Assembly: GCA_937928765.1 (NCBI GenBank)
Contig: CALFVX010000001.1
Coordinates: forward strand, 16,246-80,245
DNA length: 64,000 nt
Reading direction: 5' to 3'
Source of the DNA: an uncultured Endomicrobiia bacterium
GTDB taxonomy: Bacteria > Elusimicrobiota > Endomicrobiia > DTEH01
A program made the position numbers and the translations under genes. This document shows, in pieces, positions 2,095 to 55,430 of the stretch. Position 1 is the stretch's first letter; each line of letters starts with the position of its first letter. A model generated the notes under the pieces. It worked only from the letters and a program-made list of their open reading frames with translations, made no database searches and was not told the origin of the DNA.

Positions 2095-2118
2095 TTTTTT
2101 GATATATATAAAGATTAG

Positions 2119-2147
2119 TTGACAAATTGATGCAAAATGTGTATATA
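2119..2147 (+). promoter_or_regulatory. Sigma70-like promoter (TTGACA, 17-nt spacer with TG, TATATA) upstream of the M23 peptidase gene
   Basis: TAGTTGACAAATTG...TGTGTATATA. It is one of three near-identical promoter blocks in the window, the others being at about 25765 and 55316. Confidence 0.45.
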
Positions 2148-2164
2148 TAAAAAATGTTAGGTAT

Positions 2165-3115
2165 ATGAAAAAAACAAATTTTTTAAAATCTTTATTTTCT
2201 CAGAAAATAACATTTTTACTACTTTTCCACGATACAAAAAATCCTATAAGAAAGAGTGTATCTTTAGCATTTTTGATATTTATCATTTTTTTATGGACAT
2301 TATTTACTGTTGTTTCCGTATACTTTTCTACGCGACATATAGATTATTGGTCTGCAAAGTTGAAATCTATAATTTTAGCCTCGAAATATGAATATTTAAA
2401 TAAAGAAATTTCAAGAACTTGGGAGATGTTATCAAAAGTTGAAGAAAATGATCGTGTGATAAGAAAATTGTTAAATATGAAAGATAAAAAAGAAATAATA
2501 CTTAAATCTGACACTATAGTTGGTGAAGGCGGTCCTGCGAATATACAACAAGCAGAATTTTTACAGAAATTTGTTAAACAACCTCAAGAAATCCCATTGG
2601 TTGAATATAGTAAACATTTTAGAATATTGTATCAAAATTTGCAACAACAATTAGACAGTTATAAAGAAGTATTTAATTATATTGATTATCAGAAGAAGTT
2701 ATATCGTTCAACACCTTTGATTTGGCCTTGTTATGGATATGTTGTATCTCCTTTTGGTAAAAGGATACATCCTTTATATAAAATAGAACATTTTCATACG
2801 GGAATTGATATAGCAAATAATATAGGAACACCAATTCGTGCAACTGCAGATGGAACAGTAACTTTTGTTGGTTGGCAGGAAGGATATGGTAAGGTAATAT
2901 TAATAGAACACGAATTTGGATATACAACAGTATATGGCCATCTTTCTGTTTTTAAAGTAAAAAAAGGACAGAAAGTTTTAAGAGGCGAAGTTATAGGACT
3001 TATGGGTAATACTGGTACTGTTACAGGACCTCACTTACACTATGAAATTTGGAAAGATTCTAAATTACAAAATCCTATAAAATATGTGAACATTGAAGAC
3101 TTTTTTAAAAAATAA
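2165..3115 (+). CDS. M23 (LytM) family peptidoglycan endopeptidase with N-terminal membrane anchor and coiled coil
   Basis: The catalytic motifs HTGIDIA...D...GNTGTVTGPHLHYEI correspond to the M23 HxxxD / HxH signature. There is an N-terminal TM helix. Confidence 0.85.
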   Translation: MKKTNFLKSLFSQKITFLLLFHDTKNPIRKSVSLAFLIFIIFLWTLFTVVSVYFSTRHIDYWSAKLKSIILASKYEYLNKEISRTWEMLSKVEENDRVIRKLLNMKDKKEIILKSDTIVGEGGPANIQQAEFLQKFVKQPQEIPLVEYSKHFRILYQNLQQQLDSYKEVFNYIDYQKKLYRSTPLIWPCYGYVVSPFGKRIHPLYKIEHFHTGIDIANNIGTPIRATADGTVTFVGWQEGYGKVILIEHEFGYTTVYGHLSVFKVKKGQKVLRGEVIGLMGNTGTVTGPHLHYEIWKDSKLQNPIKYVNIEDFFKK

Positions 3116-3139
3116 TTTTTTAATAAAAAGGAGTTTTAT

Positions 3140-3544
3140 ATGTTTGGTAGAAAAATTTCTGAGCCGCCAAAAGAAGTTGAAACTATTATTGGAGAAGATA
3201 CTATTTTGCAGGGAACTTTAAAAACAAAAGGTTCTATAAGGATAGATGGTAGATTGGAGGGGAATATAATTGAAGCAAGTCAGGTTATAGTCGGTGTTAA
3301 AGGATATGTCCAAGGGGATATAACTGCACAAGCTGTTATTGTAGGAGGTAAAATTAACGGCAATGTTACCGCTATAGAAAGCATAGAATTAAAAGCAGGA
3401 GCACAACTTTTGGGAGATATTCACACTTCAACACTTTCAATAGGAGAAGGGGCAATTTTTGAAGGTCATTGTGTGATGGCTTCAGAAAAAACAAAAATTA
3501 TTGAATTAGATAAAGAAGTTCATTCAGTACAGAGAAAATTTTAA
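3140..3544 (+). CDS. Bactofilin (CcmA/BacA family, DUF583) cytoskeletal polymer-forming protein
   Basis: Repetitive beta-helix sequence of the form IRIDGRLEGNI...VIVGVKGYVQGDI...VIVGGKINGNV is typical of the bactofilin domain. It is adjacent to the M23 peptidase. Confidence 0.8.
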   Translation: MFGRKISEPPKEVETIIGEDTILQGTLKTKGSIRIDGRLEGNIIEASQVIVGVKGYVQGDITAQAVIVGGKINGNVTAIESIELKAGAQLLGDIHTSTLSIGEGAIFEGHCVMASEKTKIIELDKEVHSVQRKF

Positions 3545-3548
3545 GTTT

Positions 3549-4484: not shown

Positions 4485-4579
4485 AAGTTTAAAAACTTTT
4501 AATTTACAATTTTTGTTGATTTAAGTATAAATTTTTTATATTAAATTCAACAAAATCTAAATAAATAGATTTTAAAAAA

Positions 4580-5194
4580 ATGAAGCTAAAAGTTAACCCG
4601 AACAGAATGAACTTGTTGAAGTTAAGAAAAAGGTTGAAGTTTGCAATTAGAGGACATAAATTGTTAAAAGATAAACAAGAACAATTAACTAAAGAATTTA
4701 ATAATCTAATCTTAAAACTTATAGAACTTAGATCGAATATAGAACAAAAACTTAATGAAATTTATTTATATGTTGAAGTTTTACATAAATATTTACCTAA
4801 AGAAATTTTTGAGAAATTGTGTGAAAAAATAAATTCTCTAAAATATTTTGAAGTAACAGAAGAAAAACAATCAAAGTTTAATTTGAAACAAAAAATATTT
4901 AAGATAAAAAAAATAAAAGAAAATTTTGAAATTCTTACCACAGATTTTTACTTTAACATCTTTGTAGTTAAAATGTTTGCTTTATATCCATTAATTTTAG
5001 AATTGTCTAATTTGGAAACACTTTGTGAACTTATTGCAAAAGAGTTGCAAACTATTAGAAGAAGAGTAAATGCTTTAGAATATGTGCTTATCCCACAAAT
5101 TCAACAAGGAATTAAAAATATATTAGGAAAATTAAATGAAATAGAAAGAACAAATATTATACAACTTATGAGAATAAAACAATTAATGCAATAG
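4580..5194 (+). CDS. V-type ATP synthase subunit D homolog (isolated)
   Basis: N-terminus MKLKVNPNRMNLLKLRKRLKFAIRGHKLLKDKQEQL matches the conserved V/A-ATPase D-subunit start (V.PTRMnLl.lK.rl..A.rGh.LLK.Krd.L). No other V-ATPase genes are nearby. Confidence 0.6.
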   Translation: MKLKVNPNRMNLLKLRKRLKFAIRGHKLLKDKQEQLTKEFNNLILKLIELRSNIEQKLNEIYLYVEVLHKYLPKEIFEKLCEKINSLKYFEVTEEKQSKFNLKQKIFKIKKIKENFEILTTDFYFNIFVVKMFALYPLILELSNLETLCELIAKELQTIRRRVNALEYVLIPQIQQGIKNILGKLNEIERTNIIQLMRIKQLMQ

Positions 5195-5204
5195 TTTTTA
5201 AAAG

Positions 5205-5927
5205 ATGAAGATTTTAAAATTATTGAAAGAAGATATAGAAACAGTGTTAAAAAAAGACCCTGCTGCAAAAAATGTTTTTGAAGTAATATTATGTTATCCT
5301 GGGTTACATGCCTTGTGGTTTCATAGAATAGCTCATTGGTTTTATAAAAGAAAAGAATTCTTAATTGCAAGAATAATATCACATATTGTTAGATTTCTTA
5401 CTGGGATAGAAATTCATCCTGGAGCAAAGATTGGCAGAAGATTTTTTATAGATCATGGTATGGGTGTAGTAATTGGTGAAACTGCAGAGATAGGTGATGA
5501 TGTTTTGATATACCAAGGAGTTGTTTTAGGAGGTGTCTCGTTATCAAAAGGTAAAAGACATCCTACTGTTGGCAATAATGTTGTTATAGGAGCAGCAGCG
5601 ATTGTTTTAGGAAATATTAAAATAGGAGATAATTCAAGAATAGGTGCGGGTTCTGTGGTATTAAAAGATGTTCCTGAAGGTGCAACAGTTGTTGGTGTTC
5701 CTGGAAGAGTTGTGCTAGGTTTTACTCAACAACAGTTTCAAATTTTAGAACATAACAAGCTTCCAGACCCAATAGCAGAAGGATTTGAGATTTTGATAAA
5801 AGAGATAAATAGGTTAGAAGAAAGGATTAAAAAGGTAGAATCTCTAGAAGGAATTACAACACAGATTGATGAATATATTGAACAAAAAAAGAAAGAGATA
5901 GAAGGAATGTTTGAAGATAATAAATAG
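5205..5927 (+). CDS. cysE: Serine O-acetyltransferase with about 70-aa C-terminal coiled-coil extension
   Basis: Left-handed beta-helix hexapeptide repeats [44 protein letters not shown] are present. The C-terminal tail is K/E-rich and helical. Confidence 0.8.
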
Positions 5928-5935
5928 AATATAAT

Positions 5936-6409: not shown

Positions 6410-6444
6410 TAAAAAATTTTTTAAATATAAATAAAAAATAAATT

Positions 6445-7062: not shown

Positions 7063-7103
7063 AATTTCAATGTTAAAAAACTTACCTAAAAATTTTTTGT
7101 TTT

Positions 7104-25619: not shown

Positions 25620-25764
25620 TTTTTCAAATTTTAATTTTTTTATAAAATTATTAAAAAATCAATGAGAGTTGTATTGTTTGATTTCTATGCAAAGATTTTT
25701 TAAATTTTAATTTCCGTTGTAAAAAACATAAAAGTTAACAAAATGTAAAAATTTTCTTGTTTAG

Positions 25765-25793
25765 TTGACAAATTGCACTTTTTTGTATATTTA
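25765..25793 (+). promoter_or_regulatory. Sigma70-like promoter (TTGACA at about 25765-25770; -10 TATTTA/TATAT about 17 nt downstream) driving the riboswitch-led operon
   Basis: TAGTTGACAAATTGCACTTTTTTGTATATTTATATTAATTGG is nearly identical to the block at 55312-55350. Confidence 0.45.
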
Positions 25794-25841
25794 TATTAAT
25801 TGGCAGGGGCAACAAAAAGTTCTTAAAATATTAAGATTAAT

Positions 25842-25934
25842 TTCCTTCACGCGATAAAGGCAAACCCTGAGTAATCAGGGGGCGCAAAGCTATAGGGTCC
25901 TTCAGATGAGGGGCAGCCAGCTGCCGAAGGAAGG
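25842..25934 (+). promoter_or_regulatory. Cyclic-di-GMP-I (GEMM) riboswitch in the 5' leader
   Basis: CACGCGAUAAAGGCAAACCCUGAGUAAUCAGGGGGCGCAAAGCUAUAGGGUCC...GGGGCAGCCAGCUGCC carries the GEMM-I hallmarks GGCAAACC and GGCGCAAAGCUAUAGGG with a GNRA-like tetraloop hairpin. Flanking P1 strands UCCUUC/GAAGGA overlap the SD, and the ATG is at 25938. Confidence 0.7.
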
Positions 25935-25937: not shown

Positions 25938-26399
25938 ATGAAAGTAGAAGAAAATTTTTTTGCTTTCAAAAAAACATTTTACAAAAATTTTACATACTCT
26001 TTCCTTACTTTACTTTTTAGTATAATACTTATAAAAAATCTTTTGTTATCAAATCATAACATACAAAACTTACCTAATAATGATTTAAAATTTAGCAAAA
26101 GCTCTTATAGCACTATAAATTTTTATTCTGAAGAAGGTATTATAGTTAATTTTCCTAATCCGTTTAGTAATTTCACTTATATTTATGTTAGATTGCCTAA
26201 AAAAGATGATTGTATAATAAAAATATACGATTTGTTTGGTAATTTGATTAAAGAATTTAATCTATCTGGCGAAGATAAATATATGTTGGTTTGGGATGGA
26301 AGAAATTTTAATTCTGAAAAGGTATCAAAAGGCGGATATATTTGTGTCTTACAATATAGTGGTAAAAAAATTATAAGAAAAATAGGTTATTTAAGATGA
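25938..26399 (+). CDS. Small membrane-anchored protein consisting essentially of a T9SS C-terminal sorting (CTD) / FlgD-Ig-like beta-sandwich domain
   Basis: FPNPFSNFTYIYVRL...CIIKIYDLFGNLIKEFNL...WDGRNFNSEKVSKGGYICVLQYSGKKIIRKIGYL matches the Por_Secre_tail / FlgD_ig consensus. There is no cargo domain. Confidence 0.55.
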   Translation: MKVEENFFAFKKTFYKNFTYSFLTLLFSIILIKNLLLSNHNIQNLPNNDLKFSKSSYSTINFYSEEGIIVNFPNPFSNFTYIYVRLPKKDDCIIKIYDLFGNLIKEFNLSGEDKYMLVWDGRNFNSEKVSKGGYICVLQYSGKKIIRKIGYLR

Positions 26400-28003
26400 A
26401 GCTAAATAACAACAATAATATCTTTTTTGTTTTTGAATTTAAAATAAAAGTATGGGTTATTATTTTTTTGTTTTTATTTAATAATATTTTACAATCTTCT
26501 TACACAGGAGGCCAACCTGCAGAATTTTTACAATTTGGTGCTTCAGCAAAAGGTATGGCTATGAAAGCATTTTTTTCTATTTCAGATGATGCATCTGCAG
26601 TATATTATAATCCAGCAGGACTTGTACAGTGTGATAGAAAAGAAATTTTAGCCTTGCATACTGAACTTTTTCCTAATACTCAAACAATATATGATTTTAT
26701 AGGTTTTGTTTATCCTACGATAAAATATGGTATTTTTTCTTTAGGGATTACACAGTTGTTATCTACTGGATTTGAAAAAATCGAGATAGAATACGATTCT
26801 TCTTCAGAGGATATCATCAGAATAGAAAATAAAGGTACTTTTGATGATAGACAAATTGCTATTTTGTTAGGTTATGCTAAAGAAGTTGTTGAACATATAA
26901 ATTTAGGTGTCGGGTTTAAATATATTTCTAGAAAGTTAGATATTTATTCTGATACAATGATAGGTAGCGATATTAATGTATTAGTGAGTGGACTAAATTC
27001 AAAATTGCCAAAACTTAATGTTGCTTTTGGAATAAAAAATTTAATTTCTACTAAAAGTGGCACTGAAGATAGTTTGCCTATAATATTTAAATTAGGCAGT
27101 TCCTATAAGTTTATGAGAGACAGGTTAGTTTTAGGTTTTGATATTGAGAAAAATATAAATTCAGAGTTGAAATGGATGTTGGGAACAGAATATTGGTTAT
27201 TGGAGTTTTTTGCTTTGAGATTAGGATTTGAAGGTTTGAGTTATTTAAAAGAAACAACTGCAGGATTAGGGTTTAAATATAAAGATTATCGCGTAGATTA
27301 TTCCTTTGCATATCACGAATTGGGTTTTTCTCATAGAATTTCTGCAGATATAAAATGGGGTAAATCAGTAAAATTTGACCGAGAAGAAGAGATAAAAAGA
27401 TTAATTAACGAAACCATTGCTTTGTATACTGCAGGAAAGTTTATGGAAGCTGCAAAAAAAGCCGAAACAGCATATCAATTAGATCCTAACAAAAAAGATG
27501 TTAAAAAAATTCTTGATAATTTACTTTTGATAACAGCTTATATTCGTTCTGCAACAGAAGATACTGAAGAACATCAGGGTATAAGAAGGGCAACTTTATC
27601 TTTGATGGAAAACGATTTTGCTGGAACAGTTAATGCTTTAAGATATGCATATTATAAGAATCCAACTAATAAATCATTACATCAACTGTTAAATCGTATT
27701 GAACAAATAGCTGGAATGACTCTTACCGAAGCTTATAGGGAAGAAGTTGCTGGTTGGTCTATAATAGATAAAAAGATTTATGAAGCAAGAGAAGATGTTT
27801 TAAATGGTAGATACACTGACGCCATAAGAAAATGTCAGGAAATACTTAATTTAGAGCCAAAAAATACAACTGCACTTGAAATTATGGGTTCTGCCTTCTT
27901 TATGATGAATGAGATAGATAAAGCAAAAGCTGTCTGGAAAAAAGTCTTAGAATTAGATCCAACGAACAAGGTTATACAACAATTTTTACAAGAATTAGAA
28001 TAA
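26396..28003 (+). CDS. Outer-membrane beta-barrel protein (FadL/PorV-like N-terminal motif) with C-terminal TPR repeats
   Basis: Signal peptide, then FGASAKGMAMKAFFSISDDASAVYYNPAGL, which is the FadL/TodX/PorV-type hallmark. It has an alternating beta-strand pattern, and the last ~200 aa are TPR-like. Confidence 0.5.
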   Translation: MKLNNNNNIFFVFEFKIKVWVIIFLFLFNNILQSSYTGGQPAEFLQFGASAKGMAMKAFFSISDDASAVYYNPAGLVQCDRKEILALHTELFPNTQTIYDFIGFVYPTIKYGIFSLGITQLLSTGFEKIEIEYDSSSEDIIRIENKGTFDDRQIAILLGYAKEVVEHINLGVGFKYISRKLDIYSDTMIGSDINVLVSGLNSKLPKLNVAFGIKNLISTKSGTEDSLPIIFKLGSSYKFMRDRLVLGFDIEKNINSELKWMLGTEYWLLEFFALRLGFEGLSYLKETTAGLGFKYKDYRVDYSFAYHELGFSHRISADIKWGKSVKFDREEEIKRLINETIALYTAGKFMEAAKKAETAYQLDPNKKDVKKILDNLLLITAYIRSATEDTEEHQGIRRATLSLMENDFAGTVNALRYAYYKNPTNKSLHQLLNRIEQIAGMTLTEAYREEVAGWSIIDKKIYEAREDVLNGRYTDAIRKCQEILNLEPKNTTALEIMGSAFFMMNEIDKAKAVWKKVLELDPTNKVIQQFLQELE

Positions 28004-28014
28004 TTTTTAGGAGG

Positions 28015-29922
28015 ATGTTTATGAATATATTGAAAACAAATATAAATTTTTATATAAAAAATTATATGTTAAAACATATAAGCAAAGTTTTAATCCTAAT
28101 TATTCTTGCCACATTTCTACACCCACAACAAACAATTCAACAACTTTCTGCAGATCAACAGATAACTCCGGCAATGTTGCTTGAATATGAAACCAAGTTG
28201 GAACAGCAAAGGACAGAATATGTACAAAAAAATATTCTTGATAAAATTTTTGGCCCCAATAGATCTACAGTAATGATAGATATTACTTTAGGATTAAAGA
28301 CAACTACTACAAGACAACAGGCTTCTGCAAAAAAGCTTGATGCAAAAAGAAAATTAGGAGATACAGAATATTTACTACCCGGTATACCAAAACCTGGTTC
28401 TATTGCAGAGTCAGCTGTTCCAGCAGAAGCAAAAGGTGAGGCATCTGGTACTGAAATTATCGGAGTAAATACAGAGATAGTTATACAAAAGCAGAGTATT
28501 ACTGTAATATATGATGAAAAAATCAAAGATAATAAAGTAGAAATGGTTAGAGATGCTATTGCAGCAGCATTAGATATAAGAAAAAAAGAAACAATAGTAT
28601 TTAAGAAAGCAAAGTTTACTACGAATGTTTTGGAAAAATTTTTTGAAAATATTTTGTTACCAAAATATCTTATACCTTTGATAATAACTTTATTGTTATT
28701 AATGTTTTTGTTTGGTCCCATAGCAGATTTTTTAAGAAATTATATAAGAATGTTAAGAGAAAGATCACCCACAGAAATTTCTATAGACTCTAAACTTGCC
28801 AAAGAAGGAGAGTCGCCAACTGAAGGATTAACAGGAGCAGCTGGTGCAAGTGGAGTAGGAGGTGTATCTACAGGGTTGACAGAGGAAGAATTACAAGAAA
28901 AAGAAAAAATTAAAAAAGAAGAAAAATATATACCATTTAGTTATATAGATGACAGTAATATAAAGAGGTTAACATACTTAATAGCAAAAGAGAAACCAGA
29001 AGATATAGCTATTGTGCTTAGCTATTTAAAACCAGAGTATGTTAAACAAGTAATTGAAAGTTTTAAACCACATTTGCAAGCAGAGGTAGCAGTTGCTTTA
29101 GCTCAAGCAAGAGAAATACCGCAAGAAGATATTGTTCGTATGGATAACTATGTAAAAGAAAGAATTGATTTTTTGGTTGGAGGTATGCATCATCTTATAG
29201 AGTTATTACAGAAAGTAGATAAAACTACCCGAGATAATATATTAGAGTATCTTAAAAATGAAAAACCAGATATATATCAAAAAGTTCGTCCACAAATATT
29301 TTTGTTTGAAGATATTATTGATATTCCTGATATAACTTTACAAACTATTATTCGTGAATTAAAACCAGAAAATATTGCTCGTGCTTTAAGAAATGCTCCT
29401 AAAGAATTAGTTGATAAATTTTTTAAAAATATGTCAGAAGGAGCACAGGCACTTGTGAGAGAAGAAATTGACTATGGAAGGCCAATGACAAAAGAACAAA
29501 TTGAAGAAGAACAGAATAAAATTGTAGAATTAATTAAAAGAATGGAACAAGAAGGAAAAATTTATATTAAAGAAAGAGGAAAAACTTTTTTAATTGATGC
29601 AAGCGAAATTGTTTCAGAAACACAAAGAAATAAAAAAACAAATATAGAAGAATCTTTAGGATATGAGTATTATATTCAAGGTATAGATTTTTATCAACAA
29701 GGTGATTTTGAAAATGCAGTAACATATTTACAATATGCAACAGAATTAGATCCACAATTAAAAGAAGCATATCAATATCTTGGAAATATTTATTATGAAT
29801 CAGGGCAATATCAAGAAGCATTGAATTATTACAAAAAAGTTATAGAGATTAATCCAGAAGATAAAGAGTTTGCTTTATGGGTTGAAGAATTTGAAAAATC
29901 ATTATCAGTATCATCAATGTAA
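28015..29922 (+). CDS. Two-TM membrane protein with periplasmic segment, cytoplasmic FliG-like (middle plus C-terminal torque-helix) domain and C-terminal TPR repeats
   Basis: IAIVLSYLKPEYVKQVIESFKPHLQAEVAVALAQ compares with FliG IALILSYLDPDQAA..L..E.L..EV..RIA. FEDIIDIPDITLQTIIRELKPENIARALRNAPKELVDKFFKNMSEGAQALVREEIDYGRPM...EEEQNKIVELIKRMEQEGKIYI compares with FliG FEDIVNLDDRSIQRVLREVD...ALKGA..ELREKF..NMSKRAAEMLREDLE..GPV...VE.AQ..I...RRL...GEIVI. Confidence 0.6.
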   Translation: MFMNILKTNINFYIKNYMLKHISKVLILIILATFLHPQQTIQQLSADQQITPAMLLEYETKLEQQRTEYVQKNILDKIFGPNRSTVMIDITLGLKTTTTRQQASAKKLDAKRKLGDTEYLLPGIPKPGSIAESAVPAEAKGEASGTEIIGVNTEIVIQKQSITVIYDEKIKDNKVEMVRDAIAAALDIRKKETIVFKKAKFTTNVLEKFFENILLPKYLIPLIITLLLLMFLFGPIADFLRNYIRMLRERSPTEISIDSKLAKEGESPTEGLTGAAGASGVGGVSTGLTEEELQEKEKIKKEEKYIPFSYIDDSNIKRLTYLIAKEKPEDIAIVLSYLKPEYVKQVIESFKPHLQAEVAVALAQAREIPQEDIVRMDNYVKERIDFLVGGMHHLIELLQKVDKTTRDNILEYLKNEKPDIYQKVRPQIFLFEDIIDIPDITLQTIIRELKPENIARALRNAPKELVDKFFKNMSEGAQALVREEIDYGRPMTKEQIEEEQNKIVELIKRMEQEGKIYIKERGKTFLIDASEIVSETQRNKKTNIEESLGYEYYIQGIDFYQQGDFENAVTYLQYATELDPQLKEAYQYLGNIYYESGQYQEALNYYKKVIEINPEDKEFALWVEEFEKSLSVSSM

Positions 29923-29957
29923 GAAAGGATATTCTTCCACATCAGGAGGAATTAAAA

Positions 29958-32900
29958 ATGAGTATATTTGATAATATAAAAAATAAGTTAAATAAAAAAG
30001 AAAAAACAGAAACAGATGATAAAATAGAATTTTCAAATAAAAATGACGAGTATATACAAACAGATATGAATGATCCTATTATGTTAAAAGAAAACATACT
30101 TGCACAGATAAGGTATCTTGAACAAAAAATACAACAAGAAAGAGAAGAATTAATAAATCATCTTAAGTCTAAGGAAGAAGAAAAGGTTTCTTTAGAAATG
30201 AAGTTAAGTAATTTAGAATATAAAATTAATTCTAATAGGAATAATTTTGAAAAAGAAATAGAAAAATTAAGAGCAGATTTAGAAAGAGAGTTCCAACGTT
30301 TAAATTCAGAATATAATGAAGAAATTTCTTCTTGGGAAAAGATGTTAAATGTTAAGCAGAACGAAATAGAACAGTTGAGAAACAAAGCAGTATTTGAAGA
30401 AGCACAAAATAAAATGTTATTAGAACAAAAACAACAAGAAGTTAAACAAGAGATAGAAAGATTACAAAATAATCTAAAATTGTTAGAAAGACAGTTTGAG
30501 GAAGAAAAGAGCAAGTTTCATAGACGAATAGAAGAAAAAGATGAAGAAATTTTTAAATTAAAATCTTTAATAGAACTTAAAGAAAAACAACTAAAAGTTG
30601 AAGAAGAGAAATTTTTGTTATCAGCAAAAGATTTAAATGCCAAACGGCTACAGCAGATAAGTGAGATGCAGAAAAAATTTGAAGAAAAAATAGAAAATTA
30701 TAAGAAGTTATATAAGGCAAAAGATGAAGAATTTTTTACTGTAAAATATGTTTTGGAACAAAAACATTCAGAATGGGAACAACAACAAAAAGAAATGATT
30801 TCAAATTTAGAAAAATCAAAGAAAGATTATGAAAACAGGATAGGTCTTCTTAAAGAAGAAATAAAAAGTCATCAACAAGAGTTTGAAAAATTAATACAAG
30901 AGAAAGAAGAAGAAATAAAAAAATTAAAAGTAGAAATTATGTTAAAAGAAACACAATTTAATTCATTGATAGAACAAAAAAAGAAAATATTGTTAGAAGA
31001 AGAACAAAAGATAAAACAACAACTTTTTGATATTGAACAGAAATTTACAAAAGAATATGAAAACTATAATAAGTTGATACAAGACAAAGATCAAGAAATA
31101 ATGCATTTACAACTGATACATCAGCAGCAGTTGTCTAAGCTTAGAGAAGATTGGGATATAAAGATAAAAAAGTTATATGAAGAAAAAGAAGAATTAGAGA
31201 AAAAGATTCCTGAATTAGTTTCACAATTAGAAGAGATGAAATCAAAAGTAGCAAGTATTATGCAAGAGAAGAAGAGTTATATAGCAAAAATAAAGAAACA
31301 GAATAATGAGAAATTGCAAGAATTGAAAGAAAAATTAGAAAATACAATTAAAGAGATGTTAGAAAAAAATCAAAAATCAGAACAAGAATATAAGTTAAAA
31401 AAAGAAGAATTTGAAAACAAAAAAAATACATTAAAAATAGCACTGCAACAAAAAGAGTTAGAATTAAAAGAATTAAAAGAAAAATTAGAAAATGAAATTG
31501 AAAAAGAAAAAAACAGAGTGTTTTTGTTTGAACAAGAAATGAGACAAAAAAATTTACCTTTATATGAAAAAGTTAGTTTATTAAAAGAGGAAATTAAAGA
31601 TACGGAGAATAAAATACAGGATATTTTAAAAGCAAAAGATAAAGAAATACAGCATATTAACTTTAAGTATGAAATGTTAGAGAAGAATTTACAACAGAGA
31701 TATAGTAATGAATTAGAAAGTATTCAAAATAAAAAAATTTTATATGAAGAAAGGATTCTTCAGTTAAGAAATGAATTGAGTAAAATAGAACAAGAAAATA
31801 ATTTGAAGCTACAACAATATGAAAATGAAATAAAAGAAATACAAAACAATATAAATTTTTTAAATGAAAAAACAGAAGTAGAAAAAAGGAAAATAATAGA
31901 AGAAAACGAAAAAATAAAATATCAGTTGAATGAAGAAATTAAAAAATTAGAATGTAGATTAAATGAACTTATAAAAGAAAAAGAACAAATACTTAGTTCT
32001 AAACAACAAGAGGTTGATAGCTTAAATAATAAAATTTTAAATTTAGAAAAACAAAAGTATACTGAGATTGAAATGTTAAATAAAGATTGGCAACAGGAAG
32101 AAGAAAAGTTAAAGTTTAATATTCAACAATTAGAAGAAATTATAAAAGCAAAGATGGAAGAATATAAGACAAAAGTTATTCAAAAACAAAATGAATTGGA
32201 TTTGTTGAAAGAAAAATTTGCTAAAGAAGATTCAAATACGAGAAAAGATGTTGATAATTTAAAAATAAATTTAGAACAACAAAACTTACCTTTAGTTGAA
32301 AAACAGAAAGAAATTTTAAAAGCAATAGATGAATTACAAAAGGAAATGCAAGAAAAAGTTATTGAATATGATAAAAAAATTAATGATTTAAAAATTGAGT
32401 TAGATGATAAAATAAAACAATTTTCTGACATTGAACAGAAAAAGAAACAAGAAATAAAAATCTTAAGAGAAAAACTTAAAAGTTATTTGTTTACAAAAGA
32501 AGCACGAATTAAAGAATTGCAGACAGAATATGAGGAAAGGATTAAGCAGATAGAAAAAGAAAAGCAAGATTTTATTTTAGAACATAACAAAAAAATTCAA
32601 GAGTTAGAAATGACAAAAGATGGCATTGTTGAAAAATATAATATAGAAAGGCAGAAATTATTAGAAAATATTGATAATCTCACAATACAACTTAATAATT
32701 TTCAAGAAGAGATGCCAGAAGTTATTTCTGAAAAAGAAAAGGAAAAAGAAGAGTTGATTGTGCAGCTACAACAAATACAGAAAGAATATGCTGAAAAATT
32801 TGAAAATTTAAAGAACATGCAGATTACTTTACAAGAAAGACTAGAAAAAAGGATAAATAATTATCAAAAAATTATAAATTCTTTAAAGGAAGAACAAGAA

Positions 32901-34766
32901 AGAAAGATATATCAAAAACAGCAGGAGTTTGATAAAGTTAAAGAAGAATTAAAAGAAAAAGAAAACAGATTGTTAGAAGAAATAAGAAATTTGAATGAAA
33001 AAAATACTACAGAAATTGATAGATTAAAACAACAGAAAGAAAATCTTATCAAAAAAATAGAAGAGTTAGAGGCCACAAGTAAACAAATAATTAATAAGTT
33101 AGACTCAGAAATATTACAGATTAAGACAGAAATTATATCTAAAAAAGAATCTTTTGAACAAGAATGGACATTAAAACAAACAGATTTTGAAGATTTAAAA
33201 AATTCTTTAAACATTGAAATAGAATCTTTAAAAGTTAAGTTAAAAGCTGAAGAAGATAATTATAAAATTAAACTTATTGAAAGAACACAAGCACTTGAGA
33301 ATCTTAAAAAAGAATATGAGAATAGATATCAGCAATTGTTAAATGAATTTAACAATAAAAAAAATGACTTTAATGTTAAAATAGAAAAATTAAATATTAA
33401 AATTGCAAATTTGGAAGAAGAATTGAGGTCAAAGCAAGATTATTATTCTGCTTTGCAAAAAGCTAAAAAAGAAGAGATAGATAATATAAAATCTGAACTT
33501 TCTAATTTGGAAATAAATACTAAAATTGAAGAAGAGAAAAGGCAAAAAGAACTATCTTTACAACAGCAGAAATTAAAAGAAGAATTGGAAATATTAAAAC
33601 AACAATTAGAAATACAACGTGATAAATATATTGAAGAATTAAATAATAAAATAGCTGAAGAACAAAAAATTACAAACGATTTTAGACAAAAAGAAAAAGA
33701 GCTATTAGAAAAAATGACTCAAATAGAGGAAGAATATAATACTAAGAAACAACAATATCAGGTAGAATTGTCAAAATTGCAGAAACAATTAAAATTATTA
33801 TCTGAACAAAATGAAAAATTAATATCTGAGTTGGATAAAGAAATAGAACAAAATAATACAAAGATTGCTTTAAAACAAATTGAATTTAATACAATGAGAC
33901 AAAAATTTGAATTTGAATTTAAGAAACTTGTTTTACAGTATCAACAACAGAAAGAAAAAATTATTAGAGATTTTAATAAAGAAAATGAAGAGTTGATAGA
34001 ATCAATAAAAACAAAAGAAAATGAAATTGATACTATAAAGATGAGATATAATATAAGACAAAAAAGTATAGATGAAGAAATTAAAAGAAGAAAAAATTTT
34101 ATAGTAAAAGAATTATCTGAGTTAGAAAATGAGATTAAAAATATGGAAAATGTCTATGATGTAAAAAGTAAAGATTATGAAATACAAATTAACAGGAAAA
34201 AAGATCTTATTTCAAAGTTGAAATCTGAATTAGATAAATTAATTTTTTGCTGGGATGAAGAAAAAGAAAAAATTCTTAAAGAGAAACAAGAAAATAAAAA
34301 ACAATTAGATGAAGAGATAAATATTTTAAAGCAGAAATTAGATGAATACAAAACATATATTAACGAACTCATAATGAAAATAGAATCAAAATTTAAATTA
34401 GAACAAGAATTACTTGATTTTAAAGATTTTGAATTTATCAAAGAAAAACATATAACTTATAATACATTAGATAAAATTTATAGCTTGGTTACAAAAGATA
34501 AAACTAAATCAGAAATTAAGTTCAATAAAAATTTATTAGATGAAGCATTGATGTATTTTGATAACAAACAGTATGATTTATCTATAAAAAAATTTTTAAT
34601 TTTATTAGAACAAGATAAAAACAACGAGTTGTTAAATCAATATTTAGCATTATGTTATTATAACATTAAAGATTTTAAAAAAGCTAAAGAATATGGATTA
34701 AAAGTTTTAGAAATAAATCCTAACAATGAAATTATTAAATCCTGGCTTAAAGAAATAATTGAATAA
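29958..34766 (+). CDS. Giant (1602 aa) coiled-coil protein with C-terminal TPR module
   Basis: Continuous E/K/L/Q/N heptad-rich sequence with no globular ATPase head, and a TPR-like terminus (QYLALCYYNIKDFKKAKEYGLKVLEINPNN). Strong AGGAGG RBS. Confidence 0.6.
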   Translation: MSIFDNIKNKLNKKEKTETDDKIEFSNKNDEYIQTDMNDPIMLKENILAQIRYLEQKIQQEREELINHLKSKEEEKVSLEMKLSNLEYKINSNRNNFEKEIEKLRADLEREFQRLNSEYNEEISSWEKMLNVKQNEIEQLRNKAVFEEAQNKMLLEQKQQEVKQEIERLQNNLKLLERQFEEEKSKFHRRIEEKDEEIFKLKSLIELKEKQLKVEEEKFLLSAKDLNAKRLQQISEMQKKFEEKIENYKKLYKAKDEEFFTVKYVLEQKHSEWEQQQKEMISNLEKSKKDYENRIGLLKEEIKSHQQEFEKLIQEKEEEIKKLKVEIMLKETQFNSLIEQKKKILLEEEQKIKQQLFDIEQKFTKEYENYNKLIQDKDQEIMHLQLIHQQQLSKLREDWDIKIKKLYEEKEELEKKIPELVSQLEEMKSKVASIMQEKKSYIAKIKKQNNEKLQELKEKLENTIKEMLEKNQKSEQEYKLKKEEFENKKNTLKIALQQKELELKELKEKLENEIEKEKNRVFLFEQEMRQKNLPLYEKVSLLKEEIKDTENKIQDILKAKDKEIQHINFKYEMLEKNLQQRYSNELESIQNKKILYEERILQLRNELSKIEQENNLKLQQYENEIKEIQNNINFLNEKTEVEKRKIIEENEKIKYQLNEEIKKLECRLNELIKEKEQILSSKQQEVDSLNNKILNLEKQKYTEIEMLNKDWQQEEEKLKFNIQQLEEIIKAKMEEYKTKVIQKQNELDLLKEKFAKEDSNTRKDVDNLKINLEQQNLPLVEKQKEILKAIDELQKEMQEKVIEYDKKINDLKIELDDKIKQFSDIEQKKKQEIKILREKLKSYLFTKEARIKELQTEYEERIKQIEKEKQDFILEHNKKIQELEMTKDGIVEKYNIERQKLLENIDNLTIQLNNFQEEMPEVISEKEKEKEELIVQLQQIQKEYAEKFENLKNMQITLQERLEKRINNYQKIINSLKEEQERKIYQKQQEFDKVKEELKEKENRLLEEIRNLNEKNTTEIDRLKQQKENLIKKIEELEATSKQIINKLDSEILQIKTEIISKKESFEQEWTLKQTDFEDLKNSLNIEIESLKVKLKAEEDNYKIKLIERTQALENLKKEYENRYQQLLNEFNNKKNDFNVKIEKLNIKIANLEEELRSKQDYYSALQKAKKEEIDNIKSELSNLEINTKIEEEKRQKELSLQQQKLKEELEILKQQLEIQRDKYIEELNNKIAEEQKITNDFRQKEKELLEKMTQIEEEYNTKKQQYQVELSKLQKQLKLLSEQNEKLISELDKEIEQNNTKIALKQIEFNTMRQKFEFEFKKLVLQYQQQKEKIIRDFNKENEELIESIKTKENEIDTIKMRYNIRQKSIDEEIKRRKNFIVKELSELENEIKNMENVYDVKSKDYEIQINRKKDLISKLKSELDKLIFCWDEEKEKILKEKQENKKQLDEEINILKQKLDEYKTYINELIMKIESKFKLEQELLDFKDFEFIKEKHITYNTLDKIYSLVTKDKTKSEIKFNKNLLDEALMYFDNKQYDLSIKKFLILLEQDKNNELLNQYLALCYYNIKDFKKAKEYGLKVLEINPNNEIIKSWLKEIIE

Positions 34767-34785
34767 TTAATAGGAGGACAAAATT

Positions 34786-37700
34786 ATGGCAGAAGAAAAA
34801 AACAAACAATTTGTTCCAAAACCACCATTGATTAATAAACCTGCTCAAGGGTTTATACAAAAACCGCCTTTGCCAAAAATTAATTTACCACAGTCACCAA
34901 AGATACAAGATAAATTACAACAAGGTATGGCTAATTCTGGAATATCATCTGCACCACAATTTTCAACTTCTATAGAACAACGTCTATGGGAAGCAGAACA
35001 AGCTAAAAGACAAATGGAAATTCAACTGCAGGAATTACAAAAAATGTTGTTGGAAGAAAGAGAAAAACTTATGATGCAGACTATAAAAACTAAAGAAGAA
35101 GAAAGTTTAGCTGCTAAAGTTGAAGAAAGTATTAAAGATATTCAAGAGAGGTTAAGAAGGGAGAAAAGAGAACAAGAACTTCAAGAAGAGAAAGAAAAGT
35201 TGTTGAAACAAATTAAAGAATTAGAGGAACGTCTAGTTAAAGAAAGAGAAACTTGGATTGAAACACTTAAAACACAACTTTCTCAAAGAGATTTACAAGA
35301 ACAACAAATAGAGCAACAGTATTTGTCTAAAATAAGAGATTTGGAATCAAGATGGCAAGAAGAAAAGTCAAAATTTCAATTTATTTTGAGGTCTAAAGAT
35401 GAAGAAATAAGTAAAATAAGAAATGAATATAAAATTTTAGAAGAAAAACTCAAAGCAGAAGTTGAAAAACAAATTTCCGAATACAAATTTGAAAAGAAAA
35501 ATTTTGAAACAGAAATTAAAAATTTAAAAACCATAATTGAAGATAAAGAAAAAGAAATAATTTCTTTAAAATCACAAATATCTACAATTATTTCAGAATC
35601 AAATATAAAAAAAGATAAAACAGATTTTGAATTAAAGAAAAGAGAAGAACATATTGCAAAATTACAAAGTATTTTAGATAATATGAAATCTGAAATTAAT
35701 GTTTTGAAAAAACAAAAAGAACAAAATGAAAAAGATTTTTTTATATTAAAAGCACAGATGGGTATAATACAAGCAAAACATAAAACAGAGTTAGAAAAAC
35801 TTTCTGAAAAAAAAGATTTAGAATTAAAATCAGTTCAACAATTAGTTGAGCAGTTAAAAAAGAATTTAGAAAACAAAAATGAGATAATTAAAAATTTAGA
35901 AGTGGAAATAGAAAACTATAAAAAAGAAAAAGAAAAATATGTCTCTGAAAAAGAGAATGAAATTAATATTTATAATGAAAAGCTAAATTCTATAGCCAGT
36001 TTATTGAAGAACAAGGAAGATTATATAAATAAACTTAACCAAGATTTTTCTAAATTAGTCCAAAATAAGGAAAATTTAGAAGAAAAATCTAAAATTTTGG
36101 AAGAAGAAAATAATAAACTTAAAGTTGAATTAGAGAAAAATCTACAGCAGAGAGATGCTGAATCTAAATTGTATCAACAACAAATTTTAGAACTACAGAA
36201 ACAAATTAATGATAAAATCAATTATGTTATGAAATTGGAATTAGAATTAGACAAAAATAGATCTTATTTATTACAGAAGGAACAAGAAAATAATAATCTT
36301 AGGTTAGAATTAAATAGCTTATTGCAAGAGATAGAGTTAAATAAACAAGTAGTTGATGAAATAAAAAAAGAGATATTACTTAAAGATGATCTATTAAGGA
36401 ATTTAAATTTTGAGTTAGAGAAGACAAAATCTAATTTAGAAAAGAAAATTTTAATATTAGAACAGAAAGAAAAAGAGTTAAAACAAATTTTAGAAAAAAA
36501 TGAATACTTAGAAAAAAGTTTAAAACATAAAGAAGAATTGGAAGGAAATTTAAAAGATTTAATAGATAAGATGAAAACAGAAATATCTAAGTTAGAAAAT
36601 GAAATAAAAGTTTCAAAAATAGAAAAGGAAAAGTTAGAAATAGAAGTTAAGAGATTTTTAGAACAATATGAACTAGAAAAAAATAATAATCAATTGCTTG
36701 TTTCTCAACTTCAGGAGAGTAAAGTTAATATAAACAAATTGGAGTTGCAATTAGAAAAATATAAATCAGAATTAGATTTGGCTAATCAAGTGTTGTCAAA
36801 CAGAGAGAAAGAAATAGATAACTTTAAAGAGATTAACATAAGTCTTAAGCAAGAATTGGTAATTAAAGATGAAAAAATTAATAAGATAGAGAATGAAAAT
36901 AAATTACTTATATCAGAATTAGAAAGAACAAAAAATGATTTTGAATTATATTTAAATGAATACAATAAAATTAAATTAGAGTATGAGAAATTAAAAAATA
37001 ATTTTAATGAAGAATTAAACAAAGTAATTTCTGAAAAGTTATTCCCTTATGAAGAACATATTAAAAATATAGAATTTGAAAATCAGAAGTTATTGCAAGA
37101 GCTACAAACTAAGAATACAAAAATAGAAGAATATATAGACTCTATTAAAAATTTAAGTCAGAAGCTAGATAATTTATATAAAGATTATGAAAAACTACAA
37201 CAAGAAAACCAGCAAAAAGAGCAAAATATTTTTTCTCTTAGAGATTTAATTTCAGATTTACAACAAGAAAAAGATAAATTTTTAAAAGAAATAAAAGATT
37301 ATGAATTAGAATTAATAAATAAAAATAATAAAGTTTACGAGTTATCAGAATTAGTTCAGCAGAAAGAAACTGAGATTAAGAAATTTTCTGAAGATATAGA
37401 TGTTTACACTAAGGAAATTAATAATTTAATGTCTACCATAGAAAGCCTCAATATTAAAATAAAAGAACTAGAAGAGAAAAGTAAAGAAGAGAAAGAAAGC
37501 TTGATTTCTGAAAAAAGAATTTTAGAACAAAAGGTAAAAGATCTAATTGAAACAAACGAAGAAAAAAAAGAAACAATTTCAAGAATAAATTCAGAATTAG
37601 ATAATATTAGGAAGAAATATGAACAAGAAAAATTGCAAATTGAAAAACAATATAATGAAAAATTGGAAATTTTGCAAAAAAATCATGAGACTACAATAGA

Positions 37701-37983
37701 TAAAATAGATATTGCTTGGAAAAGGATACATTCAAAATTATTAAGTGAATATCGTTTGTTGGAAAAAAAATTGAACCAAAAAGATGAAGAAATATCAAAA
37801 TTAAAATCAAGATTAGAAACAATAAGTTTAGCTAATGATATTAAGAACAATAAAATTAAAGTGAAAAATTCAAAAATTATAAGTGAAGAAGATGGTGTTA
37901 TTGATATTAACACAAGATATGATAAGAAAAATTTGTTTTTAAGAATTTGGTTGTGGTTAAATAAGCCAATATTGAAAATATAA
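34786..37983 (+). CDS. Giant (1065 aa) coiled-coil protein with Pro-rich N-terminus and hydrophobic C-terminal tail
   Basis: N-terminus PKPPLINKPAQGFIQKPPLPKINLPQSPK, a ~950-aa heptad coiled coil, and a C-terminal NLFLRIWLWLNKPILKI. GGAGG RBS located 19 bp after the upstream stop. Confidence 0.6.
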   Translation: MAEEKNKQFVPKPPLINKPAQGFIQKPPLPKINLPQSPKIQDKLQQGMANSGISSAPQFSTSIEQRLWEAEQAKRQMEIQLQELQKMLLEEREKLMMQTIKTKEEESLAAKVEESIKDIQERLRREKREQELQEEKEKLLKQIKELEERLVKERETWIETLKTQLSQRDLQEQQIEQQYLSKIRDLESRWQEEKSKFQFILRSKDEEISKIRNEYKILEEKLKAEVEKQISEYKFEKKNFETEIKNLKTIIEDKEKEIISLKSQISTIISESNIKKDKTDFELKKREEHIAKLQSILDNMKSEINVLKKQKEQNEKDFFILKAQMGIIQAKHKTELEKLSEKKDLELKSVQQLVEQLKKNLENKNEIIKNLEVEIENYKKEKEKYVSEKENEINIYNEKLNSIASLLKNKEDYINKLNQDFSKLVQNKENLEEKSKILEEENNKLKVELEKNLQQRDAESKLYQQQILELQKQINDKINYVMKLELELDKNRSYLLQKEQENNNLRLELNSLLQEIELNKQVVDEIKKEILLKDDLLRNLNFELEKTKSNLEKKILILEQKEKELKQILEKNEYLEKSLKHKEELEGNLKDLIDKMKTEISKLENEIKVSKIEKEKLEIEVKRFLEQYELEKNNNQLLVSQLQESKVNINKLELQLEKYKSELDLANQVLSNREKEIDNFKEINISLKQELVIKDEKINKIENENKLLISELERTKNDFELYLNEYNKIKLEYEKLKNNFNEELNKVISEKLFPYEEHIKNIEFENQKLLQELQTKNTKIEEYIDSIKNLSQKLDNLYKDYEKLQQENQQKEQNIFSLRDLISDLQQEKDKFLKEIKDYELELINKNNKVYELSELVQQKETEIKKFSEDIDVYTKEINNLMSTIESLNIKIKELEEKSKEEKESLISEKRILEQKVKDLIETNEEKKETISRINSELDNIRKKYEQEKLQIEKQYNEKLEILQKNHETTIDKIDIAWKRIHSKLLSEYRLLEKKLNQKDEEISKLKSRLETISLANDIKNNKIKVKNSKIISEEDGVIDINTRYDKKNLFLRIWLWLNKPILKI

Positions 37984-38054
37984 CTTAATGTTGAAAAATT
38001 GATTATATTATATTATTTATCAACTAACCTTTAATTGCTTTTCTTTTTATCTTT

Positions 38055-46058: not shown

Positions 46059-46061
46059 TTT

Positions 46062-46823: not shown

Positions 46824-46828
46824 AATAC

Positions 46829-51241: not shown

Positions 51242-51280
51242 AATATATGACTCATATAGAAAGGAGAATTTTTTAGTAAA

Positions 51281-51616: not shown

Positions 51617-51665
51617 ATATTAAAATTATTATTCGCTTAAATTTTTTTAAACTTCTCTTCTATAG

Positions 51666-54086: not shown

Positions 54087-54091
54087 ATTCT

Positions 54092-55264
54092 ATGGTAGAG
54101 ATAAAAGAGTTTAAACCTATTTTATATAACAAAGAAAAACTTGAAAAATTAAATATAGAATTCAAAGACATAATTTGTCCTCCGTATGATGTTATTTCAG
54201 AACAACAATATAAATCTTTGATACGAAAAAAATATAATTTTGTAAACCTTGAATTGCCAAAAGGTAAAGAAAACAAAAAATATCAGAATGCAAAAAAGTT
54301 TCTAAGTAATCTAAAACGATACAAAATCTTAATAAAACAATCAGCACCATCAATATATATTTATCAACATAAATTTTCTTATCCTGAAGGATCTAACAAA
54401 TACTATACTAGAACAGGAATTTTTTGTTTAATAAAATCTGACCCAGAATACAAGACAATTCTTCCTCACGAACAAACAAAGCCAAAACCACTTCAAGATA
54501 GGCTGAATTTAATTTCTACTTTAAACTTGCAAACATCAGCACCATTTTTTCTCGTAGAAGACAAAGATAAAAAGTTTTACAACAAACTTTTAGAACTTGC
54601 AAACAAAAAAAATCTTATCTTAAGTTTCAAAGATGACAAATCTGAAGAACATAAAATCTATCGTGTTATTGTTGGGACAAAAGAGTTTATCTGGATAAAA
54701 AGATTTTTTAAAAAAGAAATACTTTTTATAGCTGATGGTCATCATAGATACAAAGTTACTTCTGAATATTTAAAAAATATTGACAAGAATTATTTGATGG
54801 GATATATATGTTCTTTTTCTGACGACGGGTTGTTGATTTTACCTACACACAGAGCTGTTTTAGGAAAGTATGTTTTAGAAGAAGTAAAAAATTATTTTGA
54901 TATAAGCTTATGGGATGGTAAAACTAAACCTAAGATTTTGTTTTATCACAATGGAGAATTTAAAATTTTAAATTTAAAGACTAATTTAAAAAATTCAGAT
55001 AAAACCTTAAAAAATTTAGAATATGTTGTTCTTAATGAAACTGTATTTAAAAATTTATCTAAAGAACAGATTTTTTATCATCAAGAGATGAAAGAAGTTA
55101 TAAATTTTGCAGATAAATATAATGGATTTGCATTTATACTACCTGCTGTGACAAAAGATGAGTTTATAAAAGTTGTAAAAAAAAGTCTTGTATTTCCGCC
55201 AAAGACAACTTATTTTTATCCAAAAGTTATAAGTGGGTTGTTTTGTTATGATTTAGAAGAGTAG
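54092..55264 (+). CDS. DUF1015 family protein
   Basis: N-terminal ...FKDIICPPYDVISEQQYKSL matches the DUF1015 PPYDVI motif. Confidence 0.6.
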   Translation: MVEIKEFKPILYNKEKLEKLNIEFKDIICPPYDVISEQQYKSLIRKKYNFVNLELPKGKENKKYQNAKKFLSNLKRYKILIKQSAPSIYIYQHKFSYPEGSNKYYTRTGIFCLIKSDPEYKTILPHEQTKPKPLQDRLNLISTLNLQTSAPFFLVEDKDKKFYNKLLELANKKNLILSFKDDKSEEHKIYRVIVGTKEFIWIKRFFKKEILFIADGHHRYKVTSEYLKNIDKNYLMGYICSFSDDGLLILPTHRAVLGKYVLEEVKNYFDISLWDGKTKPKILFYHNGEFKILNLKTNLKNSDKTLKNLEYVVLNETVFKNLSKEQIFYHQEMKEVINFADKYNGFAFILPAVTKDEFIKVVKKSLVFPPKTTYFYPKVISGLFCYDLEE

Positions 55265-55315
55265 ACAAAAATTTATTGTAAAATTTTTGTAAAGATTAAA
55301 TTTTGTGAATTTTAG

Positions 55316-55344
55316 TTGACAAATTGCAATTTTGTGCATATATA
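55316..55344 (+). promoter_or_regulatory. Sigma70-like promoter (TTGACA, 17-nt spacer with TG, TATATA)
   Basis: TAGTTGACAAATTGCAATTTTGTGCATATATAAAATAATTGG is a near-copy of the block at 25761-25800. Confidence 0.45.
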
Positions 55345-55430
55345 AAATAATTGGTTAAAAAAATTGTTAAATTTGTAAGTATAAATAAAGGAGATAAAGT
55401 TTTAAGAAATTTTTTTAAAATTTTTAGTAA

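Follow-up and report, generated by a model that had tools for sequence, protein, structure and literature searches.

Three copies of a conserved module, probably a reused sigma-70-type promoter, before envelope-related loci of an uncultured Endomicrobiia bacterium

The stretch of DNA analysed here (referred to as the window) comprises 64,000 nucleotides (nt) of an uncultured Endomicrobiia bacterium (contig CALFVX010000001.1 of assembly GCA_937928765.1, positions 16,246 to 80,245), and it raises the question of why one short promoter-like cassette should recur in front of three different sets of genes. These are an operon for an M23 peptidase and a bactofilin (site 1), an operon with a cyclic di-GMP (c-di-GMP) riboswitch in its leader that encodes a FliG-TPR protein (site 2), and a gene for a small hydrophobic protein (site 3). 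A preliminary description, made from the sequence alone, had reported the shared sequence at these three loci and proposed either a common regulator-binding site or a small mobile promoter module to account for it. The reading favoured here, which is held with somewhat better than even confidence, is that a single strong sigma-70/sigma-A-type promoter module is present at the three sites as paralogous copies, which have been inherited vertically and have evolved partly in concert.

The presence of a common sequence at the three loci was confirmed by a search of the window. The 14-mer TAGTTGACAAATTG was found without mismatch at 2116-2129, 25762-25775 and 55313-55326, and the full common word extends to the 15-mer TTAGTTGACAAATTG, with exact copies at 2115, 25761 and 55312, all on the + strand. 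Each copy is intergenic and lies 5' of + strand genes at the head of a transcription unit; nearly all genes of the window are on the + strand, there are few real intergenic gaps, and those gaps hold the three copies. At the ~24% G+C of the window, TTAGTTGACAAATTG is the only 15-mer with at least three copies and at least four G/C bases, the other repeated 15-mers being A/T low-complexity coding sequence, and such a 15-mer arose in only 1 of 100 third-order Markov simulations. When up to two mismatches were allowed, eight matches were seen as compared with 1.9 expected from shuffles, and none of 100 shuffles reached eight. A generic sigma-70 consensus scan was uninformative at this base composition (20 kb gave 153 sites, where 160 were expected). 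One further near-copy with a single mismatch, at 51447-51460 on the - strand, was set aside as a chance occurrence, being located within the hypA coding sequence and having no -10-like partner.

All three sites fit the frame TTGACA-N17-TAT(A/T)TA, with TG at spacer positions 14-15 (3-4 nt 5' of the second hexamer), and are co-oriented with the start codon or riboswitch that follows 17-140 nt downstream (Table 1). The gap of 11-12 nt given in the preliminary description was a miscount, its own anchors being separated by 6-9 nt. The second hexamers have A at position 2 and, at position 6, A and not T. The near-identity of sites 2 and 3, previously put at about 35 of 41 positions, was found to be 38 of 44 (86.4%) in an ungapped alignment of the cores that runs through the final TAATTGG. 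Identical bases occupy 27 of the 32 positions that lie outside the hexamers (P ~1.6e-8) and 14 of the 17 in the spacer (P ~1e-4). In the window this similarity ends after 44 nt, no further common flank having been found. Site 1 has in common with the others the 15-mer, an identically placed TG and a TATATA that keeps the register; its spacer otherwise differs, with an A-tract where sites 2 and 3 have a T-tract. It begins 20 nt past the stop codon of the preceding gene, and the ATG of the M23 peptidase gene lies 17 nt past its -10 hexamer, leaving a very short predicted leader. Read as a promoter, the module would combine upstream A/T tracts with G + TTGACA as the -35, TG near -15 within a 17-nt spacer, a TATATA-like -10 and transcription beginning near TAATTGG. 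To our knowledge, and as judged by eye, the cassette is unlike the consensus of sigma-54, sigma-28, extracytoplasmic function (ECF)-type or Bacteroidetes-type promoters. Gene duplication as the source of the likeness between sites 2 and 3 was considered and rejected, the 153- and 155-residue products encoded downstream of them being unrelated.

Selection on the cassette was assessed by comparison with a close relative. A scan of species-representative genomes with a strict form of the pattern returned 34 hits, and the only low-G+C genome with several of them was the Endomicrobiia metagenome-assembled genome (MAG) 21I_069.bin.66 (JBKBRH01), the sister species in what follows. Its hits are exactly three, namely the orthologs of sites 1, 2 and 3, with none elsewhere in the assembly, and these loci are 87-89% identical to the window at the nucleotide level. 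Over the three 44-nt cores, 125 of 132 positions (95%) are identical between window and sister species (P ~6e-11), as compared with differences at 186 of 711 four-fold degenerate sites (26%); among the 51 spacer positions, 4 have changed (P ~1e-3). The whole core, including its spacer, is under purifying selection. At site 3 conservation falls right past TAATTGG, the sequence downstream showing 55 matches, 28 mismatches and 21 gaps, and the site-2 leader has diverged from TAATTGG up to the riboswitch, with the aptamer conserved. This is the pattern expected if transcription starts around TAATTGG and if the whole core, spacer included, is functional. The emphasis placed in the preliminary description on identity beyond the -35 and -10 hexamers was therefore justified: that identity is real and under selection, the promoter-like module is reused before non-homologous genes, and in a related clade it reaches 70-117 nt at ~80%. 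At the predicted start region of site 2, the sister species carries a 6-nt tandem duplication, TAATTG-TAATTG (L123, ~3140-3160 on the - strand, orthologous to 25797-25803 of the window).

Orthologous intergenic regions were then obtained from four further lineages by way of homologs of DUF1015, the FliG-TPR protein and the M23 peptidase. Lineage C was represented by Logan SRR27730043 (SRR27730014 for site 2), lineage D by JGI/ENA contigs L159-L162 and L168-L170, D' by L172 (site 1), and lineage E by NCBI assembly GCA_039630545.1, in which all three sites are present. The homologs of the neighbouring proteins are labelled Endomicrobia, Endomicrobiia or Elusimicrobia. The three copies stand at orthologous positions in five Endomicrobiia lineages, including ones whose DUF1015 protein is only 58-77% identical. 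G + TTGACA was seen at the corresponding place in every locus of every lineage, TTGACA being exact in all 16 copies, orthologous or paralogous, and in lineages A, B, C and E it is followed after a 17-nt spacer by TATATA or TATTTA. The best-supported account of this distribution is that the common ancestor of the sampled Endomicrobiia would already have carried the module at each of the three loci, with vertical inheritance since then. Physical clustering of the three sites was also considered as a possible feature, and was discarded in view of GCA_039630545.1, in which ~144 kb separates sites 1 and 2 and site 3 lies on a different contig.

The bases surrounding the hexamers vary from lineage to lineage, with the loci of one lineage in agreement. 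At most sites lineages A, B and C have T(T/G)TAGTTGACAAATTG, and the D clade reads TTTTGTTGACA(AA/TT)TTGCCA...(G/A)T(T/A)TCTATAT at all three. The site-2 and site-3 copies of lineage D align over 117 nt at 80.3% identity, or over 178 nt at 73.6% with the upstream TGGGGGAGGGGGGT box included, and the site-1 copy of D' aligns with these over 81 nt at 77.8% and 69 nt at 79.7%, respectively; the copies of lineage E have little in common beyond GTTGACA. The site-2 and site-3 loci of D belong to one species-level lineage, as the 90% clusters of both marker proteins have members on one 1,187,668-bp contig, and the two D-clade DUF1015 representatives are 98% identical. Quartets were counted over 66 ungapped columns of sites 2 and 3, in the order lineage grouping : orthology grouping : control. 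The counts were 8:1:1 for A-D, 10:2:2 for A-E and 12:2:1 for D-E, and 1:5:1 for the closely related pair A-C. When site 1 was included, both the lineage and the orthology signals stood above the control (for example 9:6:1 for D-E). Site-specific traits are kept in every lineage, namely the A-tract at site 1 and the T-tract at sites 2 and 3. The copies thus appear to evolve partly in concert while holding on to these traits, and the variants shared within a lineage point to short-tract gene conversion or re-copying, to selection matching the copies to the same transcription machinery, or to both. The long A/T-rich similarity in D favours copying, and the retained site-specific spacers together with lineage-specific shared positions favour a shared DNA-binding factor.

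A shared factor is also the basis of the alternative that survives best. According to this, a single transcription factor would bind the bases that flank and separate the hexamers (TTAG, AATTG, GCA/GCCA and the TG region), its site overlapping both the -35 and the spacer, and the three operons would form a small regulon whose sites co-evolve with the factor. The constraint on the spacers (4 of 51 changed against 26% at four-fold sites) is in its favour, and lineage-specific states common to three loci that keep their site-specific ones are what would be expected of positions tracking a trans-acting factor. The family is also small and specific, not a general promoter type, and sites 2 and 3 have upstream boxes in common as well (TGTAAA-N5-TGTAAA and, in relatives, TTTTCG.CG..AAAA). 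However, no dyad or direct repeat common to the cores could be found by eye in the 16 aligned copies, a partial ACA...TGT symmetry being spaced differently at sites 1 and 3, and no linked regulator gene was identified. Moreover, the D-clade similarity of 70-117 nt takes in low-information A/T tracts and the first transcribed bases, which exceeds the length of an operator and is more typical of common descent or copying, and the copies of lineage E are alike in little beyond GTTGACA. An operator of this kind is therefore regarded as rather unlikely. The regulator-binding site of the preliminary description fares accordingly: constrained spacers and lineage-wise co-variation fit a shared trans-acting factor and also fit gene conversion, leaving a shared regulator possible, and with it the suggested co-regulation of the M23/bactofilin module and the riboswitch operon. 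A bolder proposal, entertained only tentatively, joins these two causes as options. Either a dedicated mini-regulon would exist, in which one trans-acting factor (a specialised sigma-associated or DNA-binding protein) reads the extended cassette and ties together the M23/bactofilin cell-shape genes, the FliG-TPR apparatus and the giant-surface-protein locus, with sites co-evolving in each lineage, or dispersed promoters of 45-120 nt would have been kept alike over long periods by gene conversion, which has rarely been documented for promoters.

The size of the family was examined with a profile built from 12 copies and scanned over 246 kb of Endomicrobiia DNA (the window and 13 loci chosen around the sites). 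Only orthologs of the three sites scored above 20 bits. The next hits were at 16 bits, which is the level of shuffled sequence (1-2 hits per shuffle above the 14-bit cut-off). Other promoter-like sites in the sampled loci do not carry the cassette; these include TTTACA-17-TATAAA at 4485-4579, TGTTGAAAAATTG at 37991, the tRNA promoter region and the hypA promoter in L159. As the bare 14-mer occurs by chance in more than 120 viral contigs, stricter patterns were used for wider searches, and a scan of JGI metagenomes with a strict 20-base pattern gave two hits, both in unrelated contigs of 36-40% G+C, and no relatives. The bare 14-mer was also seen at unrelated promoters in L156/L157. For the DNA covered, the profile scan and the three-only result in the sister MAG indicate a small, specific family and not a general promoter consensus. 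The prospect raised in the preliminary description, that a genome-wide search might reveal many occurrences, was not borne out as far as it could be tested, since the sister MAG holds only three orthologous strict matches and the other sampled promoters are unlike the cassette. One site at 37988-38030, TGTTGAAAAATTGATTATATTATATTATTTA, has GTTGA.AAATTGAT in common with site 1 and scores below the family profile. It lies 5' of the gene at 38055, whose orthologs in L161 and L164 are M16 peptidases, and may be a diverged relative or merely the -35 context of the clade.

These scans also bear on ordinary convergence, in which independent strong promoters lie near the consensus of the clade and the extra identity comes from AT-rich composition and a clade-typical extended -35. 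A G before the -35 and TTGA(A/C)A do recur at 37991, in the tRNA promoter region and at the L159 hypA promoter, large databases contain chance matches to the bare 14-mer, and the window is rich in 40-50-nt low-complexity repeats at 70-80% identity. Convergence would nevertheless have to produce the 14 of 17 spacer and 27 of 32 non-hexamer matches of sites 2 and 3, the 117-nt D-clade alignment and a lineage-type quartet support far above control, and no other promoter in the 246 kb scores near the family; it is considered improbable. Far less credible still is a small mobile element, such as a miniature inverted-repeat transposable element (MITE) or an outward-facing promoter derived from an insertion sequence (IS), recently inserted at three places, for which the same short sequence before unrelated genes speaks, as in the 'putative mobile promoters' of PMC3488235, but which is largely refuted by the orthologous positions in five lineages (down to 58% identity of the neighbouring protein), by similarity that stops at the 44-nt core in the window and so leaves no common flank for terminal repeats or target duplications, and by the lack of extra copies in the sister MAG or the 246 kb of related DNA. 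As the promoters are old and syntenic in all lineages, recent mobility is therefore disfavoured, and with it the mobile module of the preliminary description in the sense of recent movement. Equally slight is the chance that the cassette is a conserved RNA element of transcribed leaders and not a promoter: conservation alone cannot separate function at the DNA level from function at the RNA level, and site 1 is just 20 nt past a stop codon, but the geometry is exactly TTGACA-17-TATATA, the sites have no Rfam match, conservation stops where the start is expected and the leaders beyond it diverge, and upstream there are only A/T tracts and no other promoter candidate of similar quality.

A reused promoter is accordingly preferred, with several points standing against it. 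Geometry, position and conservation are what suggest that it functions as a promoter. The last base of the -10 hexamers is A where the canonical hexamer has T, and the D-clade hexamer at 17-nt spacing is TCTATA, such that the real -10 there may sit 2 nt further on as TATAT(A/T), with a 19-nt spacer that is unusual for sigma-70. The products are not obviously among the most highly expressed, so that 'strong constitutive' is an assumption. Constrained spacers and lineage-wise co-variation with site-specific features are explained no less well by a shared DNA-binding factor than by gene conversion. For site 1, the D clade is represented by L172, which belongs to a sister species (M23 peptidase 82% identical) and not to the genome of the site-2 and site-3 copies, and the count of three copies is based on a single fragmented MAG and 246 kb of site-centred loci.

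Should the reused-promoter reading hold, each copy would head a separate envelope or cell-surface unit, namely the M23 peptidase and bactofilin, the FliG-TPR operon, and the small membrane protein beside a giant-protein locus, and the module would most likely provide similar, high basal transcription at all three. Locus-specific control would be layered on this separately, through the c-di-GMP riboswitch 3' of site 2 and the TGTAAA repeats 5' of sites 2 and 3. That the three envelope-related loci are expressed alike is suggested, not proven. A search of the literature on promoters and start sites in Endomicrobia returned nothing relevant. For Elusimicrobiota/Endomicrobiia, a phylum in which genetics is almost absent, the cassette offers a specific, conserved putative promoter sequence that would be useful for annotation and is a candidate portable promoter. 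The lineage-wise co-variation of dispersed promoters would be a tidy natural case for the concerted evolution of regulatory sequences, without overturning current understanding.

Table 1. Predicted promoter copies, neighbouring features of the window and orthologous loci
Feature	Position	Strand	Details
Site 1 core promoter (predicted)	2115..2158	+	TTAG; -35 TTGACA 2119-2124; 17-nt spacer AATTGATGCAAAATGTG; TG 2138-2139; -10 TATATA 2142-2147
Site 2 core promoter (predicted)	25760..25803	+	TTTAG; -35 TTGACA 25765-25770; spacer AATTGCACTTTTTTGTA; TG 25784-25785; -10 TATTTA 25788-25793; TAATTGG at predicted start region
Site 3 core promoter (predicted)	55311..55354	+	TTTAG; -35 TTGACA 55316-55321; spacer AATTGCAATTTTGTGCA; TG 55335-55336; -10 TATATA 55339-55344; TAATTGG at predicted start region
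A/T-tract block	25744..25759	+	TGTAAAAATTTTCTTG; abuts site-2 -35 on 5' side; UP-element-like; degenerate counterpart of TGTAAA-N5-TGTAAA in site-2 orthologs of other lineages
Direct repeat TGTAAA-ATTTT-TGTAAA	55277-55293	+	5' of site-3 -35; 17-mer kept in all five lineages
Third half-site TGTGAA	55304-55309	+	5' of site-3 -35
Genes downstream of site 1	2165..3544	+	Operon; M23 peptidase 2165-3115; bactofilin 3140-3544
c-di-GMP-I-GGC riboswitch aptamer	25850..25929	+	Rfam match; leader 3' of site 2
Operon downstream of site 2	25938..37983	+	Five genes: 153 amino acids with FlgD-Ig/T9SS-tail-like C-terminus; TPR protein; FliG_M/FliG_C-TPR fusion; 1602 amino acids; 1065 amino acids (last two without Pfam hits)
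Gene downstream of site 3	55431..55898	+	155-amino-acid hydrophobic protein, no family hit
Site 1 orthologs			L145, L173, L171, L172
Site 2 orthologs			L123, L163, L161/L162, L164
Site 3 orthologs			L148, L158, L159/L160, L168-L170, L166

Upstream of the cores, the TGTAAA-N5-TGTAAA direct repeat is present at sites 2 and 3 and not at site 1. At site 3 it is nearly unchanged in five lineages (L148, L158, L159, L168, L166) though the neighbouring protein is only 58-77% identical, and in two lineages it also abuts the -35 of the site-2 orthologs (L163 ~5522-5540; L164 ~7883-7900). In form it resembles what we take to be the half-site repeats of OmpR/WalR-type response regulators, or else an UP element. 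In relatives with less than 30% G+C, a G-rich box, TGGGGGAGGGGGGT, was seen ~130 nt 5' of the site-2 and site-3 promoters (L161 ~7659-7672; L168/L169 ~11171-11185; weaker in L159, L163 and L166), sometimes followed by a start codon and an immediate stop codon, and a second shared box, TTTTCG(A)CG..AAAA, is located at about -95 of the same promoters. Both boxes are decayed or absent in the window.

The genes preceding sites 1, 2 and 3 belong to different families (fumarase beta subunit, CCA/polyA-polymerase family and DUF1015, respectively). An Rfam search of the window returned only the riboswitch and a tRNA, with no family at the three sites. The riboswitch was found in the window and the sister species only (L123, 3014-3094), and was absent at the gathering threshold from the site-2 leaders of three other Endomicrobiia lineages (L161, L163, L164), which have no Rfam hit and keep the GGGGCAAC motif just past the predicted start. 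Given this distribution, the riboswitch was either gained in one lineage or lost in the others, behind a promoter older than itself, and the c-di-GMP riboswitch operon would therefore be using an older, shared promoter. The site-2 operon itself is kept in the same three lineages, where its large proteins are of ~1600 and 800-1065 residues and without Pfam hits. Its FliG-TPR protein (635 residues) has 208 homologs at E<=1e-20, nearly all in Elusimicrobia, and the operon may encode an undescribed envelope or motility apparatus. At site 1, three tRNA-gene-like sequences, recognised by eye at 5160-5560, separate the fumarase gene from the M23 promoter in the D' contig L172, with the cassette still directly 5' of the M23 gene.

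Around site 3, an ortholog of the 155-residue protein comes after DUF1015 in every relative examined. Small tandem open reading frames (ORFs) nearby contain a 114-nt direct repeat of 91% identity (56268-56381 and 56871-56984), and in relatives a variable island next to DUF1015 holds up to three tandem NTP_transf_2 nucleotidyltransferase/HEPN pairs, which are toxin-antitoxin-like (L168, 7859-9983). An ORF of more than 1,947 codons at 58158-64000 on the + strand runs off the end of the window, its G+C content of 34-39% being above that of the rest. In the same neighbourhood of relatives, after DUF1015, the 155-residue ORF and the radical-SAM, LPG-synthase and glycosyltransferase/TPR genes, there are called genes of 16,324 and 18,628 residues. 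An identical contig is present in Logan. One NCBI record gives 'Candidatus Omnitrophica bacterium' as the source; the close relatives of three marker proteins are all Endomicrobiia/Elusimicrobiota, and the MAG is probably mislabelled.

When compared with known systems, the cassette resembles the canonical sigma-70/sigma-A promoter of textbooks in its exact TTGACA, 17-nt spacer, TA-rich -10 with A second, phased A/T tracts at about -40 to -60 and position at operon heads, and it departs from it in the last base of the -10, in a TG one base further upstream than the classical TGn and in the 19-nt spacer suggested by the D clade. Like regulon operators that overlap the -35 (class II activator or repressor sites), it has conserved bases flanking and following the -35 at the promoters of functionally related genes; unlike them, it has no recognisable symmetry and no identified cognate regulator, and in one clade the similarity goes well beyond the length of an operator. 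Concerted evolution by gene conversion of dispersed repeats is known from duplicated tuf genes and rRNA operons. As in those cases, paralogs within a genome are closer than orthologs of other lineages (quartets 8:1:1 to 12:2:1). The units here, however, are ~45-120 nt long, non-coding and tens to hundreds of kb apart, and their site-specific features persist, such that any conversion would have been confined to short tracts or incomplete, and a common factor exerting selection would account for the pattern equally well.

The closest described phenomenon is the propagation or reuse of promoters (PMC3488235; PMC3575422), and promoter reuse as such is known; the cassette appears to be neither a mobile element nor a demonstrated regulator site. 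Matus-Garcia, Nijveen and van Passel (2012; PMC3488235) surveyed very similar non-coding stretches directly 5' of non-homologous genes within one genome and found small families, most of two members, many of which are not IS, MITE or riboswitch sequences. The copies described here differ in being old and syntenic and not recently propagated, and in their lineage-wise co-variation, a subject that the survey does not address. Under its further rule for membership sites 1 and 3 would be included, site 2 lying 135-178 nt 5' of the ATG at 25938 owing to the riboswitch leader. Against its threshold of upstream regions aligned over more than 50 nt at >=80% identity, the pair in the window falls short in length (44 nt at 86.4%), whereas the D-clade pair lies within it (117 nt at 80.3%), and here too the flanking coding sequences are non-homologous.

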